Virus record (IMG/VR): IMGVR_UViG_2778261505_000002
Direction: 5' to 3' (one strand)
DNA: 64,000 nucleotides
Origin: a virus
Lineage: Duplodnaviria > Heunggongvirae > Uroviricota > Caudoviricetes
The translations under genes were made by a program, and so were the position numbers. This document shows, in pieces, positions 54,287-64,000 of the stretch. How positions within the stretch are numbered: position 1 is the first letter of the stretch; each line of letters opens with the position of its first letter. Under the pieces are notes generated by a model that saw nothing but the letters and a program-made list of their open reading frames with translations, searched no databases and was not told the origin of the DNA.

Positions 54287-54485
54287 ACGGGAGAAGGAAA
54301 CGCTTCATGAAATCAGTAAGTGGCCGGAGTTCCCTGAGTACTGGAAGCCTAAAACGCGAGCTAAGTTAGAGCGTTTAGGGTTGGTTGCAAACGTTTCTGA
54401 AACGTGGTGTTCGGCCAACTACCAGTTAACTGATAAAGGGAAAGTATTGCTACAGCAATTAGTAGAATCAGGAGCGTTAAAATGA
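54270..54485 (+). CDS. hypothetical protein (71 aa)
   Basis: ORF overlapping neighbours. Confidence 0.4.
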   Translation: MIVLSKREKETLHEISKWPEFPEYWKPKTRAKLERLGLVANVSETWCSANYQLTDKGKVLLQQLVESGALK

Positions 54486-54634
54486 TTCCATACATCTCAT
54501 TAGCTTTTATGGGTGGCTTCCTTATCGGCTTCGGCATCTGTCGTGATTTAATTAAGCAGGAACTTAAAACCAAAACACTGTGCATCGGAAAGCGTGTGTA
54601 TCGGGTAGTTCATGAAACAAAGGTGAAAATATGA
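54482..54634 (+). CDS. small membrane protein (50 aa)
   Basis: ATGA overlap; hydrophobic N-terminus similar to the 54107 product. Confidence 0.35.
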   Translation: MIPYISLAFMGGFLIGFGICRDLIKQELKTKTLCIGKRVYRVVHETKVKI

Positions 54635-54921
54635 GCAATTTAACTTCTTGGGAATGGTGGTTGGCCACCTATTTCTTAGCGGCCGGAGTCGCATTCGCCT
54701 TTTACGTAGGTCAGTTAGTCGTAAAACTGTTGCTGATTAAATTTGCTAGTCATAAACGTATCGATGATGGTCTGTGGCGTCTTGGCACCCTGGTGGAAAC
54801 TCGCTACGGGCAACTTAAGGAGAACGAAACCATTACTATCCAAGCGAAACGATTCACTGCCACCATTACAAGAACACCTAGTCGTAGAGTGGCCTTGATC
54901 AAAAAAGTCACAACCGAATAA
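54631..54921 (+). CDS. membrane-anchored small protein (96 aa)
   Basis: ATGA overlap; N-terminal TM helix. Confidence 0.45.
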   Translation: MSNLTSWEWWLATYFLAAGVAFAFYVGQLVVKLLLIKFASHKRIDDGLWRLGTLVETRYGQLKENETITIQAKRFTATITRTPSRRVALIKKVTTE

Positions 54922-55310
54922 AAACATATTGATAAGTATTTACTTACTTATCTTTTATGTATAAGATGACTTTGTTTTCGTTGAGACGCGACTGTTTGAA
55001 CTTAAATACAAGTGCAAACGAAGAAGTCTATCTGGCAGTAGCCTAATAAGCCAAACACCAGCGAGGTCAGTTTCCAGCCTCGTTACCGAAATGGGACACA
55101 CTGAGCGAGTGTGATTGCAGAACGCAGGAGGGAACATTCATGTTCCCTCCGATGAAGTAACAGAATGGGCGGTTGGTATATTTTCAACTCCATATGACTC
55201 CCGGATTCTTAGCCACTGACCGCCCATCCTGTTACGTCATTTTGTTCAATTATGTCGTTTATACTGGGTTAAAAAGCGGCGACGTAGCCCGGCTGGTATG
55301 GTTAGCCAGC

Positions 55311-55425
55311 ACACAACGTTGAGGCCATTACATTTTTATCAATTCTAAGGTTCTATTCACAGAGATACCGGCGAGCGTTGATATGTAACATGTTGGGCAA
55401 ACATTCAATCGGAGTAGTGGCCTCA
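55311..55425. repeat. long-range inverted repeat (16 bp arms CACAACGTTGAGGCCA / TGGCCTCAACGTTGTG)
   Basis: Arms about 80 nt apart in a 700 bp ORF-free region. Confidence 0.6.
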
Positions 55426-55699
55426 ACGTTGTGAAGACAGGATTGTTGTGTAGGTTTAACCACTGTTGCCATTGGTGCCTGTTTTCACAACAAATGATTC
55501 CATACATCACATTGTATAAATTACAAAGTAGGTGCTGTCCTCAGAAACATCATCTACTTAAAGATTTTGCCTTCTACTATTGAGCGAAGTCGAAAGCGTC
55601 TGGCACTAACGAAAAGTGCAAGTAGCGGTGCGTTTCCTGGCAGAAACTAAACCGTCGCGATTGGCACTGTTGAGTAATAAATACTGGCAGTGCTGAATT

Positions 55700-55774
55700 G
55701 ATGGTGTAGCTCAGCGGTAGAGCAGTTGGCTGTTAACCAACTGGTCGGTGGTTCGAATCCACCCACCATCGCCA
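55700..55774 (+). tRNA. tRNA-Asn (anticodon GTT)
   Basis: Cloverleaf folded by hand: 7 bp acceptor, D arm, anticodon loop CTGTTAA, T loop TTCGAAT, 3' CCA encoded. Confidence 0.85.
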
Positions 55775-55779
55775 ATTTA

Positions 55780-55866
55780 GGGGAGTTAGTCCGTAGAGGT
55801 AGCGGTGTAGACTGTAAATCTACTGTCATTGCGACTCGGGTGGTTCGACTCCATCACTCCCCACCA
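55780..55866 (+). tRNA. tRNA-Tyr (anticodon GTA), long variable arm
   Basis: Acceptor GGGGAGT/ACTCCCC, anticodon loop CTGTAAA, T loop TTCGACT, CCA encoded. Confidence 0.85.
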
Positions 55867-55870
55867 AATT

Positions 55871-55946
55871 GCCGGTTTAGCTCAGTTGGTAGAGCGCCTG
55901 CCTTGTAAGCAGGATGTCAGCGGTTCGAGTCCGTTAACCGGCACCA
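55871..55946 (+). tRNA. tRNA-Thr (anticodon TGT)
   Basis: Acceptor GCCGGTT/AACCGGC, anticodon loop CTTGTAA, T loop TTCGAGT, CCA encoded. Confidence 0.8.
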
Positions 55947-56163
55947 ACACAACAGGAAAGAGCATTGAAAACCGCCGAGACTGCCCTGTTTTAAGCGTAA
56001 GTCCGTGCAAACGTCATACAGTGCTCTTTTCGTTGTGGTTGATGCGCAGACTGATGCGCGGAAAGAAATGCCCCAGCGACACACGAGGCGAGTTCACACA
56101 CTGCAATGCAGTCAGTAGCCGGGGTCGCTAAGCCGGAGATCAGTACCGGTAACCACAACAATT

Positions 56164-56250
56164 GGAGAGTAGGGAGCATGGTGCTCAAGCGGTCTTGAAA
56201 ACCGTCCCATTGTGCAAGCGATGATGGTTCGATTCCATTACTCTCCGCCA
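56164..56250 (+). tRNA. tRNA-Ser-like (anticodon TGA), atypical D arm
   Basis: Acceptor GGAGAGT/ACTCTCC, anticodon loop CTTGAAA, long variable arm, T loop TTCGATT, CCA; D arm non-canonical. Confidence 0.55.
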
Positions 56251-56252
56251 GA

Positions 56253-56330
56253 CACAGCGTTGAGCGGTTTGGCCTTTTAATCACCCAGATTAAGACTCCG
56301 CTAACATAAACCAGACCGCTCAACGCTGTG
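56253..56330. repeat. long imperfect hairpin (20 bp arms) immediately 3' of the tRNA-Ser-like gene
   Basis: CACAGCGTTGAGCGGTTTGG ... CCAGACCGCTCAACGCTGTG, 19 of 20 complementary. Confidence 0.6.
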
Positions 56331-56405
56331 ATAGACAATTACGGCAGACGTTCTTAACCATAGCTTGCTAACATCCTAGCAACACTTTTTTTCAGCGCAA
56401 AATTC

Positions 56406-56428
56406 AAAGGGGCTTCGGCCCCTTTTTT
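56406..56428 (+). terminator. rho-independent terminator
   Basis: GGGGC-TTCG-GCCCC followed by TTTTTT. Confidence 0.85.
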
Positions 56429-56471
56429 GCAACTGAAAGAGTCAAGTCTACGAACTTTGTAGGAAGAAATA

Positions 56472-56822
56472 ATGACCAGCAAAGAGAACACACCACTAAA
56501 AGTCACCCCTGAACACATTGAACAACTCATTCAAAGTGAACATTATTTCACTGCATATGATGCCAGCCACGGGGATAACTTCATCTCTGTTTACAATTCA
56601 AAAACAGATATCGACAAAGGTCATGAGTCGTTAAAACTCTTAACGTTCTGCGTTATGGTTCTCAAAAATGGATATACCGTAACGGGAAAATCTGCGTGCG
56701 TAAGACCAGAAATCTTCAACTTTGATGTTGGTCGCGAGTACGCTCGAAAAGATGCTATCGATCAAATCTGGCCCCTGGAAGGCTATCTCCTGAAGCAAAA
56801 GTGGCATGAGGCAAAGCAATGA
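56472..56822 (+). CDS. hypothetical protein (116 aa)
   Basis: ORF translationally coupled to the glutaredoxin gene. Confidence 0.5.
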   Translation: MTSKENTPLKVTPEHIEQLIQSEHYFTAYDASHGDNFISVYNSKTDIDKGHESLKLLTFCVMVLKNGYTVTGKSACVRPEIFNFDVGREYARKDAIDQIWPLEGYLLKQKWHEAKQ

Positions 56823-57064: not shown

Positions 57065-57274
57065 TTTTAACGGCTCACAGGAGCCGTTTTTATTCCCACC
57101 AAACTCACTCCCGTTTCCCTTAAAATTCAAAAAACAACGTCAAAATGATTCCATACCTACTATGTATGGAATCATTACTGAAAATGAGTTACTTTTACTC
57201 TTGATCCTATAAGAATCTATGCCTAATATACTGTTTACTTATACAGTGAATCGGCGTAACTCGGTGATTGTCAT

Positions 57275-62941: not shown

Positions 62942-64000
62942 ATGAAGGCACTGATGGTTCGAACTGACTTCTCACTTGGGGAGTCGGCTCTAAAAGCAGA
63001 AAACGCGGTGAAGATTGCCAGAGAAGCTGGCTACACCGCTGTAATTTCAGCAGATAGCATGAATATTGCGAGCGTTATTCCACTACAACGTGCCGCTGGT
63101 GACGACATGGCGGTTATTTGTGGTGTGAAACTAAACATTGTTGATGATCCCACATACGAGCACCGGGCTAAACTTGCTAAAGAATCTATGAGATGTATGG
63201 AATCATTAGAGCGAGGACGTAACTACTCGTTTACCGCTCTAATTAAAAATGAGAAAGGATATCGCGACATCTGCGAACTAATGACGGCGGCCAACACACG
63301 AGAACAGTTCTACTTTGTACCGCGTCTCTCGCTCGAACAGTTGGTTTCTACATATGCCAAAGGCAACATCATCCTGCTTACTTCCGACATCGGTAGCGTG
63401 TTCCAACGCAACGATTTTGCAAAAATCATAAGCACACTGATTACAGCGGGTGGAAAAGACAACTTCTATAGTGTGGTTTATCCGCACCCTACCCCATTCT
63501 ACGACCAGATTAACGTCCGGGCGATGAAAGTCGCCAGCGCATTGAAAATAGAGCCAGTGGCGTTCTATCCCGCTTATTACGAATCGATCGACGATGCAGA
63601 CATTAAAGACATTGCGCACATGGTTACGAACAACATCAAAATCGACCAGCCGCATCGTCTGCGTATCCCCCACCAGCGAGATAACGCCGTCAATGGTCGC
63701 CGCCATCTCCTTGAGGCGCTTAAAGCCTTCTCCGTTCGCATGGATGTGCCGGTAACAGCTGCAATGGCCTCAACAACGCAGGATACCATTATCGATGCCT
63801 GCACATGGCGCTGGCATGAATTGCCGCCAGCACTGCCAAAGATGGCAGACGACGAGCCTGCAACGCTGATGAAACTGGCTGTTGCAGGGCTGCGTAAACG
63901 TCTTACCACAAAAGAGTTTGGATACACACCACCTGCTTCTGAGAACAGGGTTTATGTTGAGCGGCTAAAGTACGAAATGGACACGCTGACTCGCCTGGGA
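62942..64000 (+). CDS. DnaE-like DNA polymerase III alpha subunit, N-terminal region (3' end outside window)
   Basis: ATG 62942, frame open to the window end; N-terminal pattern compatible with a PHP domain; not in the ORF track because no stop is reached. Confidence 0.55.
   Translation, partial: MKALMVRTDFSLGESALKAENAVKIAREAGYTAVISADSMNIASVIPLQRAAGDDMAVICGVKLNIVDDPTYEHRAKLAKESMRCMESLERGRNYSFTALIKNEKGYRDICELMTAANTREQFYFVPRLSLEQLVSTYAKGNIILLTSDIGSVFQRNDFAKIISTLITAGGKDNFYSVVYPHPTPFYDQINVRAMKVASALKIEPVAFYPAYYESIDDADIKDIAHMVTNNIKIDQPHRLRIPHQRDNAVNGRRHLLEALKAFSVRMDVPVTAAMASTTQDTIIDACTWRWHELPPALPKMADDEPATLMKLAVAGLRKRLTTKEFGYTPPASENRVYVERLKYEMDTLTRLG

Follow-up and report, generated by a model that had tools for sequence, protein, structure and literature searches.

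The 64,000-nt stretch of the IMG/VR virus record IMGVR_UViG_2778261505_000002 (Caudoviricetes) that we analyzed, hereafter called the window, belongs to an SSU5-like phage-plasmid of E. coli. Between its upstream protein genes, which end at position 54921, and a plus-strand tRNA cluster, which begins with tRNA-Asn at 55700, lies a gap (54922–55699) that an initial annotation, made from the sequence alone, had described as a structured region free of open reading frames (ORFs) upstream of the tRNAs. The 5′ third of this gap holds a feature that the initial annotation had missed, a reading frame resembling the tag-coding frame of transfer-messenger RNA (tmRNA, encoded by ssrA), embedded in a conserved RNA structure. 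The gap is indeed devoid of longer ORFs, with none above 60 aa on either strand, and the homologous gaps of phages Cyrano and SSU5 carry no annotation; in pJN2-26, a single ORF of 46 aa is called on the minus strand. Given the short ORFs and the unannotated relatives, we rejected a protein-coding reading. By Pfam, none of the proteins flanking the gap could be connected to trans-translation.

The gap is 100% identical to a region of plasmid CP056788.1 and 97–99% identical to phages Cyrano and CMS-2020a. An equivalent gap of ~780 bp, spanning from a small ORF to tRNA-Asn, occurs in SSU5 and in plasmids of Salmonella, Enterobacter, Citrobacter, Yersinia pestis, Klebsiella, and Cronobacter; in all, 773 plasmid records share it. 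Covariation in this lineage was assessed in an alignment of 18 SSU5-like representatives with 47–95% identity.

A putative sigma-70 promoter (−35 TTTACT, 54939–54944; 17-nt spacer; −10 TAAGAT, 54962–54967) precedes a predicted transcription start near G54974. Its hexamers are kept across the 18 SSU5-like relatives, in which the −10 element reads TAAGAT, TATGAT, or TATAGT. At the equivalent position, Felix O1-like and Erwinia-phage homologues carry TTGACA-17-TATAGT or TAATCT, and one GenBank record has an annotated promoter beneath the match. Downstream, ARAGORN identified tRNA-Asn, tRNA-Tyr, and tRNA-Thr (55700–55946) as well as tRNA-Ser (56164–56250), all on the plus strand. The unit likely ends at an intrinsic terminator, GGGGC-UUCG-GCCCC-U6 (56406–56428, plus strand), which we read from the sequence and which is absent from the list of our consensus scan. 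No terminator separates the structured RNA from the tRNAs. Together, these features suggest that the gap forms the start of a plus-strand RNA operon consisting of a promoter, an RNA of ~340 nt, insert-type hairpins, four tRNAs, and a terminator, with a predicted common transcript. A promoter-only or terminator explanation of the gap was rejected, as the consensus scan of the gap lists neither element and an 11-bp hairpin within it (see below) is not followed by a U-tract.

A tag-like reading frame in a structured RNA

The frame at 55014–55049 (plus strand) reads GCA AAC GAA GAA GUC UAU CUG GCA GUA GCC UAA UAA and encodes ANEEVYLAVA without a start codon; the corresponding tag of E. coli ssrA is ANDENYALAA. 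As is characteristic of tmRNA, it is an internal tag frame that begins at a resume codon, lacks a start codon, and places its stops in a helix, and it is conserved in all homologues. An A-rich linker (54998–55013) with an A at −4, like A86 of E. coli tmRNA, precedes the resume codon, and the linker of relatives has AUAAAU or AUAACU before GCA. In a Felix O1-like phage, ARAGORN also reads the tag and a ‘resume consensus’.

Matches to the gap at ~54962–55116 extend to unrelated phages. A pattern scan of viral contigs yielded at least 120 loci, and among the matches listed all conform to AN[DE]xx[YF]LAVA except for one chance match. Members found by BLAST or by a pattern placed outside the ORF added the variants ANDDVVLMAA, ANEEMYLAAA, and AKDDQFLAVA. 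Conservative as well as synonymous changes (the latter AAC/AAT, GTA/GTG, and GCC/GCT/GCG) occur within the frame, which thus appears to behave partly like a coding sequence.

The tag frame is part of a larger fold. The segment 54974–55312 (339 nt) has a predicted free energy of −117 kcal/mol, compared with −90.9 ± 4.8 kcal/mol for dinucleotide shuffles (z −5.5), and its helices are supported by compensatory changes across homologues. In a model of hairpins and pseudoknots, 96.3% of cells are paired in the 18 SSU5-like sequences, and 17 pairs are doubly changed, as opposed to 6.5 ± 1.6 upon shuffling (0/500) and 0–4 in slid controls. The corresponding cores of 33 lambdoid and Felix-like sequences show 94.1% of cells paired. 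Since covarying pseudoknots only make sense in RNA, these results support an RNA-level element.

The end of the tag and both stops are enclosed by a P5-like helix, CUGG/CCAG (55032–55035/55058–55061), which is 100% paired in the 18 and the 33 sequences and occurs as compensatory CUGA/UCAG in the N4-like phage IME11. Two H-type pseudoknots supported by covariation follow. In pseudoknot A (55062–55096), stem 1 pairs CGAGG with CCUCG (55062–55066/55078–55082), and stem 2 joins the loop UUCCA (55072–55076) to UGGGA (55092–55096). Pairing is 100% in both stems, and compensatory changes occur in SSU5-like as well as in lambdoid and Felix-like phages; in the latter two, stem 1 shows UA 22/CG 11 and GC 23/AU 10, and stem 2 GC 21/AU 12 and AU 26/GC 7. 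In pseudoknot B, stem 1 (CACACU/AGUGUG, 55097–55102/55108–55113) is 100% paired with changes from CG to GC or UA. Stem 2 (GCG/CGC, 55105–55107/55123–55125) is short and invariant in the SSU5-like lineage; upon direct reading of lambdoid and Felix-like sequences, it is long and covarying (GCCC/GGGC, CCCUGA/UCAGGG, or GACGGGAG/CUCCCGUC). Upstream of the tag, neither a pseudoknot 1 nor any other fold supported by covariation was detected in the 33 lambdoid and Felix-like sequences.

Beyond this core, the SSU5-like form contains three further elements supported by covariation and a tentative third pseudoknot. Two of them had already been noted in the initial annotation, whose three long pairings are all present with coordinates off by 1–10 nt; they exceed chance expectation (z −5.1 to −6.5) and are maintained by compensatory substitutions in relatives 47–95% identical. 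The 11-bp-arm hairpin GGAGGGAACAT-TC-ATGTTCCCTCC is perfect and located at 55127–55150 (−16.5 kcal/mol, z −5.2, 0/200 shuffles). Across SSU5-like sequences, 7 of its 11 pairs carry double changes, such that nearly the entire sequence is replaced while the pairing is kept. It was rejected as an intrinsic terminator, as it is followed by GAUGAAGUAAC rather than a U-tract. The pairing reported as 15 bp, AACAGAATGGGCGGT (55159–55173) with ACCGCCCATCCTGTT (55219–55233), exists as well, although only 14 of its pairs are Watson–Crick and one is an A·C mismatch. It belongs to a long interrupted hairpin of ~23 bp (55152–55240, z −5.1), whose 39-nt loop (55177–55215) contains a conserved CCCGG and whose 22-nt stem arms (55152–55173/55219–55240) are 91% complementary; 99.3% of cells are paired, with double changes in five pairs.

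The third element, GCUGG-UAUGGUUAG-CCAGC (55292–55310), has a D-loop-like loop and is 100% paired with one compensatory change (GCUGA/UCAGC). Between the last two hairpins, we tentatively place pseudoknot C. Its candidate stem 1 (UAUGUCGU/GCGACGUA, 55251–55258/55279–55286) is 97% paired without covariation, and its candidate stem 2 (GGGU/GCCC, 55266–55269/55287–55290) reads GGGUU/AACCC in most relatives, with the alignment one column off. Conservation of the SSU5-type RNA extends to about 55312. Both the minimum free energy structure and RNAalifold offer an alternative in which the tag end (55032–55053, CUGGC..UAGCC..AGCC) pairs with 55288–55310 (GGCU..GGU..GCCAG) in competition with the local helices. 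As the positions involved are all invariant, covariation does not decide between the two arrangements; this pairing could constitute a switch that hides the template.

The predicted 5′ end of the RNA is complementary to host tmRNA. Its first segment, GUUUUCGUUG (54974–54983), complements nt 95–104 of E. coli ssrA (tag codons 2–5), and a second one, GCGACUGUUU (54988–54997), complements nt 82–91 (linker and first two bases of the resume codon). Within these segments lie two islands at which conservation of the 5′ domain peaks in all lineages: GUUUUCG, the reverse complement of ssrA CGAAAAC (tag codons 3–5), and GCGAC, the reverse complement of ssrA GUCGC (last three linker bases and first two bases of the resume codon). 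In every lineage, the 5′ end has its longest exact complement, of 7–12 nt, at ssrA 96–98. Shuffled sequences rarely matched the 12 nt of Pistou (1/5000) or the 10-mers (~15/5000), and more often the 8-mer of the window (361/5000). Adjacent host bases are reached by different sequences, namely UUUGCGG:CCGCAAA in lambdoid and CUAUUUU:AAAAUAG in Felix-like phages. E. coli and K. pneumoniae share an identical ssrA target, and that of Salmonella has one extra A.

Predicted duplexes between the arms and ssrA reach −23 to −41 kcal/mol, compared with −10 to −21 kcal/mol for shuffles (0/500 each); for the window, the value is −26.3 kcal/mol (0/500 shuffles against the ssrA segment 61–130). In a stricter control, shuffled arms were free to choose any ssrA site. 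Here, the HK620 type, a second lambdoid type, and IME11 remained significant (z −4.4 to −5.0, 0/100), Pistou and Vi01 were marginal (1–2/100), and the target site was identical in every lineage except the L015 subtype. In all 46 of 46 variants, the duplex with ssrA is stronger than that with the RNA’s own tag region, and pairing of the 5′ end with its own tag was rejected, as the complement spans only 4–6 nt and the duplex is far weaker. No other part of the 340-nt RNA stood out as complementary to ssrA.

The core, comprising the 5′ end, the tag, and the two pseudoknots (~190 nt), occurs in at least six lineages of enterobacterial phages, almost always on the tRNA strand and beside tRNAs. In SSU5-like phage-plasmids, tRNA-Asn lies 583–698 nt (mostly 634–698 nt) downstream of the tag. 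Among lambdoid and P22-like phages, the core of HK620 sits between the annotated pR′/qut and the late terminator, and other members often have Ser, Arg, or Met tRNAs downstream. In Felix O1-like phages and Erwinia Ounavirinae, it resides inside the tRNA cluster with TTGACA-17-TATAGT directly upstream. Vi01-like Ackermannviridae, N4-like Gamaleyavirus, and Klebsiella siphoviruses complete the set; HK620 and Vi01 carry the core without adjacent tRNAs. In total, 641 phage records contain the core, as do 350 of 5426 complete E. coli genomes (~6%; 141 chromosomal and 219 plasmid places), where the RefSeq annotation is ‘none’. Of the 185,579 species representatives scanned, those with the core belong to Buttiauxella, Kluyvera, and Pseudocitrobacter only. 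A host range beyond Enterobacteriaceae was rejected, since 18 further pattern matches proved to be chance occurrences in coding sequence.

Absence of a detectable tRNA-like domain

We scanned Rfam with the whole window at gathering threshold and with 54800–56500 at E ≤ 10. The only non-tRNA match in the gap was beta_tmRNA on the tag, far below its cutoff (E 0.007, 17.3 bits; gathering threshold 84). Homologues likewise gave sub-threshold matches at the tag to tmRNA, to tmRNA_permuted (21.7–29.8 bits), and to alpha_tmRNA (20.8 bits), and the best score with a model of the tmRNA group, 29.8 bits against a threshold of 47, came from a Felix-like locus. A known RNA family was thus rejected: beyond tRNAs and the weak beta_tmRNA match, Rfam returned no ROOL, GOLLD, riboswitch, ribozyme, or intron. 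The covariance-model scan proposed in the initial annotation revealed no family at threshold, and its weak tmRNA match lies on the tag. The suggestion of a structured, unclassified noncoding RNA has held up: the RNA lies on the tRNA strand, covaries including its pseudoknots, matches no Rfam family at threshold, and is not separated from the tRNAs by a terminator.

With default settings, ARAGORN found no tmRNA in the window, and with relaxed settings it joined the tag to arbitrary tRNA domains amid many false calls. In the Rfam tmRNA alignment of the Carvaje homologue, the tRNA domain is deleted. The idea that the invariant 5′ end might serve as acceptor strand in a split tRNA-like domain was rejected for lack of a complement in cis, as no CGAAAAC-N-CCA partner occurs within 2.5 kb in 127 loci. 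Nor was the acceptor piece of a two-piece tmRNA found upstream of 54974 in the window, where the protein genes end at 54921. Because no tRNA-like domain is detectable, the RNA is by definition not a tmRNA.

Felix O1-like loci, e.g., that of Citrobacter phage Mijalis (locus L005, ~1960–2100), contain a circularly permuted tRNA-like element with the order T-arm, 7-nt 3′ acceptor strand, capping loop of 4–8 nt, complementary 5′ acceptor strand, and D-arm. It occurs in two covarying types, ACCCUUC-GCCAAACA-GAAGGGU (with CCA) and ACUCGGC-AGAU-GUCGAGU (without CCA), and lies ~550 nt upstream of the tag with three tRNA genes in between. The ‘permuted tmRNA’ that ARAGORN calls in Felix-like phages combines the tag, this element, and part of tRNA-Lys. 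We rejected the element as the missing tRNA domain, because it does not occur in SSU5-like or lambdoid loci and ARAGORN has to borrow from tRNA-Lys. It matched neither YrlA nor any Rfam family.

Insert-type hairpins, repeats, and neighboring genes

Downstream of the conserved RNA, at 55312–55433, lies the third pairing of the initial annotation. Its 16-bp arms, CACAACGTTGAGGCCA (55312–55327) and TGGCCTCAACGTTGTG (55418–55433), are perfect, and the stem grows to 20 nt with 95% complementarity (55312–55331/55414–55433; z −6.5); the arms were said to be about 80 nt apart and are separated by 82 nt of variable cargo. Compensatory changes (GC 9/AU 6; GC 9/AU 4) are present in this stem as well. The hairpin is the least essential part of the locus, being missing in one relative (L105) and different in others (L015 and L050), and L010 carries recombinant arms. 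In L105, a Klebsiella-type viral contig, a single CAACGTTGTG is left and the whole long hairpin is gone, consistent with a deletion between the two CAACGTTG copies made by the palindromic arms.

The hairpin shares a CACAAC...GUUGUG frame with hairpins after the core in lambdoid phages, and further members of this class lie at 55947–56046 and 56253–56330 of the window. In lambdoid loci (L004–L126), such hairpins flank the core both up- and downstream (CACAAC-AGGUAAGAGCAUUG ... CAGUGCUCUUUCC-GUUGUG). Their stems covary (AAGCUGC/GCAGCUU, ACGACGCU/AGCGUCGU, CCCAC/GUGGG), and their cargo of 35–95 nt is hypervariable. Several possess a canonical T-arm (GGGUUCGAGUCCC) and a UCCA or UCCG end. These hairpins may represent decayed tRNAs kept as processing signals, or small-RNA cassettes.

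A second hairpin, GUUGUGAAGACAGG/CCUGUUUUCACAAC (55428–55491), has GUUGUG in common with the preceding stem; its fold signal is modest (z −3.2) and its alignment poor, so that we regard it as weakly supported. It is followed by ATGATTCCATACATC (55494–55508), which is invariant in SSU5-like sequences and probably a DNA site outside the RNA structure. This stretch is one of five copies in the window of the 12–15-mer ATGATTCCATAC(ATC), located at 54482–54496 (+), 55494–55508 (+), 57145–57159 (+), 57161–57175 (−), and 63192–63206 (−). Three copies are exact, two form the near-perfect palindrome ATGATTCCATAC-CTACTAT-GTATGGAATCAT ~100 bp upstream of the integrase gene, and the copy at 54482 begins a 50-aa ORF (MIPYI...). 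The repeat looks like a putative operator or other protein-binding site. The remainder of the gap (55509–55699) is a mostly poorly conserved spacer, apart from the small hairpin GCAC-UAACGAAAA-GUGC (55603–55619), whose GCAC/GUGC pairing changes to GUG/CAC in Klebsiella relatives.

Between tRNA-Thr and tRNA-Ser lies a structured module (55947–56163) homologous to the one directly after the core in HK620 and Carvaje. It contains the long hairpin ACACAACAGGAAAGAGCAUUG...CAGUGCUCUUUUCGUUGUG, followed by GUGGUUGAUGCGCAGACUGAUGCGCG...GCCGGAGAUCAGUACCGGUAACCACAAC, and is not present in phage Cyrano. Its cargo TTGAAAACCG (55965–55974) equals a segment of the tRNA-Ser anticodon arm (56195–56204). Directly after tRNA-Ser, a 20-bp hairpin (56253–56330) shows a fold signal stronger than any other at the locus (z −10.7); its arms (CACAGCGTTGAG...) are similar to those of 55312–55433 and include a compensatory change from A-T to G-C. 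The tRNA itself, tRNA-Ser(UGA) according to ARAGORN, scores 44.3 bits on the tRNA-Sec model (threshold 47), a near match owing to its long variable arm. Upstream of the gap, the 96-aa ORF (54631–54921) is labeled ‘C-type natriuretic protein’ in the RefSeq record of SSU5 and in many plasmids, which looks like a propagated annotation error, because the ORF has no Pfam match.

Possible roles in host trans-translation

The most conservative reading of these data, a new, widespread, structured RNA family tied to phage tRNA clusters, is well supported. Beyond it, we lean with moderate confidence towards a conserved tmRNA relative devoid of the tRNA-like domain, which would anneal to the tmRNA of the host and either mask the tag template there or take its place. 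Transcription would start at the conserved promoter at ~54974 and proceed to the terminator at 56406–56428. The long hairpins and tRNAs would serve as processing punctuation, and cleavage there probably frees the RNA. Its 5′ arm would then anneal to host tmRNA and cover the resume codon and the tag template. As a first option, the annealed RNA may only block tagging by the host. Alternatively, the phage resume codon, ~16 nt past the duplex, would come to lie next to the alanine-charged tRNA-like domain of the host and SmpB, creating a host–phage ‘two-piece tmRNA’ by which stalled products would receive the phage tag instead of ANDENYALAA. Because of everything that is conserved, we think re-templating likelier than a block only. 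The explicit form of this proposal, a ‘template-only’ tmRNA that silences the host template while host SmpB, alanyl-tmRNA, and ribosomes append the phage tag (...YLAVA), is put forward tentatively and as a possibility well short of probable.

Several observations weigh against the reading that we favor. A profile of the core recognizes E. coli ssrA with only 2.9 bits, for which reason homology by sequence profile was rejected; as the profile hardly recognizes ssrA, it is the tag, its context, and the architecture that link the RNA to tmRNA. The window promoter matches the consensus at only 8 of 12 positions, below the threshold of the scan, and was therefore not called. Under the strict control, the arm–ssrA duplex is not significant for the lineage of the window (12/100), for Felix-like phages, or for the L015 subtype. 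With the window duplex failing this control, the antisense idea draws chiefly on the other lineages and on a target position that stays constant, and since the lineages are related, their agreement does not count as independent evidence. The ends of the tag frame are also conserved at synonymous sites, and because constraints at the RNA level explain this too, conservation does not establish that the tag is translated. Finally, we know of no precedent for template exchange between two RNAs in trans-translation.

Conservation at synonymous sites in the ORF ends would also suit a pure antagonist or decoy, which masks the resume region of ssrA by antisense pairing and/or titrates SmpB, S1, or RNase R, and whose tag is never translated and kept as a mimic or for reasons at the RNA level. 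The anti-ssrA arm itself fits this alternative, as do the in vitro block of trans-translation by antisense to the tag region and the phage molecule of the DS6A type, consisting only of the tRNA-like domain (TLD), that has been reported as a tmRNA inhibitor. An antagonist leaves unexplained, however, why an A at −4, an open frame of ten codons, an aromatic residue 6, and an Ala/Val-rich end should be retained, why paired stops lie inside a helix, and why replacements across six lineages, such as LAVA to LMAA or LAAA, are conservative. We therefore consider this explanation unlikely, while granting it more than passing weight.

A phage tmRNA in pieces, in which the coding piece described here is joined by an unrecognized acceptor piece that is also phage-encoded, appears quite unlikely. 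Candidates for the acceptor would be the tRNA-like long hairpins of lambdoid phages, the permuted element of Felix-like loci, or a CACAAC/GUUGUG helix stacked on a pseudoknot. The ARAGORN call of a permuted tmRNA in Felix-like loci points in this direction, and so do the UCCA or UCCG ends of core-adjacent hairpins, some with a canonical T-arm, and the two covarying acceptor-stem types of the permuted element. Yet none of these elements is shared by all lineages, the hairpins carry hypervariable cargo, and the hairpin 55312–55433 is dispensable. Moreover, there is neither a G3·U70 pair nor a partner for the invariant 5′ end, and the ARAGORN calls are compromised by a 5′ tRNA domain that falls within tRNA-Lys and by relaxed runs that return arbitrary domains and many false calls.

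The shared strand with the tRNAs and the absence of an intervening terminator favor a leader or processing platform for the tRNA precursor, one of the proposals of the initial annotation. The region is not merely a leader, as its 5′ third is autonomous, widely conserved, and equipped with a putative promoter of its own. In its strict form, with the hairpins as punctuation for RNase III or RNase P and the tag-like stretch as a decaying relic of a captured ssrA fragment, we regard this explanation as very improbable. Long, near-perfect stems suit RNase III, and insert-type hairpins are gained and lost. In contrast, sequence and structure of the core are kept in Ackermannviridae, N4-like, and P22-like phages, including loci with no tRNA nearby; in several lineages the core has a predicted promoter of its own; the pseudoknots are maintained by compensatory change; and more than 100 variants keep the tag frame open, which would not be expected of a relic. 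A DNA element (a replication origin or recombination site, as the initial annotation had envisaged, a partition site, or a miniature mobile element bounded by inverted repeats at its termini) is hardly credible and unsupported for the core. In its favor, recombination at the DNA level does occur at insert-type hairpins (the insertion-like 55312–55433, lost between CAACGTTG repeats in L105, and the recombinant arms of L010), and the repeated motif ATGATTCCATAC lies at 55494. Against it, pseudoknot covariation has no rationale in DNA, the element keeps one orientation with respect to tRNAs and promoters, and virulent phages with unrelated replication systems carry it.

Either blocking or re-templating, if true, would constitute a new form of viral control over ribosome rescue and protein quality control. 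Some phages depend on host tmRNA or are sensitive to it, and the RNA would provide a concrete handle on these old observations. It would also be a possible natural inhibitor or re-programmer of an antibiotic-target pathway. Among its carriers are relatives of the phage-plasmids of Salmonella, Yersinia pestis, and Klebsiella, as well as Felix O1-, Vi01-, and N4-like phages of the kinds used in typing and therapy.

Relation to known systems

Large or stable RNAs beside phage tRNA genes are exemplified by ROOL, GOLLD, and the T4 ‘species 1 and 2’ RNAs, with which the RNA described here shares its position as a structured noncoding RNA in or next to a phage tRNA cluster. ROOL and GOLLD models did not match 54800–56500 at E ≤ 10, and RNAs of this group are not known to have a tag frame or an antisense arm.

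Phage RNAs that act on host RNAs or derive from a late-promoter leader include the anti-sRNAs AgvB and AsxR (PMC4104026) and StxS (PMC7547250). Like these, the lambdoid versions of our RNA reside in the leader between pR′ and the terminator, which is constitutively transcribed in lysogens (PMC7547250), and their action would be base pairing with a host RNA. The known examples have no tag template, however, and bear no relation to our RNA in sequence, size, target, or architecture. The Pas sRNAs of lambdoid prophages also appear different, as they are set apart by their description in a preprint (Hfq-type, ~84 nt, intrinsic terminators).

Synthetic antisense oligonucleotides to the tag region of tmRNA block trans-translation in vitro and are used in ribosome display and cell-free systems (PMC8012679, PMC3384345). 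They complement the tag-coding stretch like the 5′ arm does, but are artificial DNA without an attached second template, unlike the phage RNA. Mycobacteriophage DS6A encodes a TLD-only tmRNA-like RNA thought to interfere with host trans-translation (PMC4131195, PMC11915505). That RNA keeps the tRNA-like domain and lacks the template, making the RNA described here its mirror image.

Compared with tmRNA (SsrA, RF00023), the phage RNA has in common a GCA-started tag frame without a start codon, the A-N-D/E start and aromatic sixth residue of the tag, an A-rich context with A at −4, stops within a CUGG/CCAG helix, H-type pseudoknots after the frame, and, in its SSU5-like form, a size of ~340 nt. 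It differs in having no acceptor stem, T-arm, G3·U70 pair, CCA end, P2 helix, or pseudoknot 1, in carrying an anti-ssrA sequence upstream of the frame, and in a tag that ends in LAVA rather than LAA; outside the tag, similarity to E. coli ssrA is negligible. The tmRNA definition used so far is the union of a tRNA-like and an mRNA-like domain. As search tools find tmRNA via its tRNA-like part, a template-only relative is invisible to them. A 2014 census of tmRNA in phages and plasmids recorded ssrA only in mycobacteriophages and Bacillus phage G; the 2025 tmRNA database has 79 phage entries, which may include some Felix-like ARAGORN calls. Full-text literature searches turned up no phage RNA described as template-only or anti-ssrA.

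Another of the closest parallels is two-piece tmRNA (RF01849–51, RF04321) of Alpha- and Betaproteobacteria and cyanobacteria, to whose models the best sub-threshold Rfam matches belong. It likewise consists of a coding piece that requires pairing with a separate acceptor piece, as we propose for the phage RNA, and its genes are processed by tRNA-processing enzymes. In two-piece tmRNA, both pieces stem from one gene of one organism and pair via the acceptor stem and P2, whereas no acceptor piece was found for the phage RNA, whose proposed partner is the one-piece tmRNA of the host, contacted via the template region. If re-templating is real, the RNA would be categorically new, namely a hybrid two-piece tmRNA of host and virus, and the first case of a parasite re-programming trans-translation.

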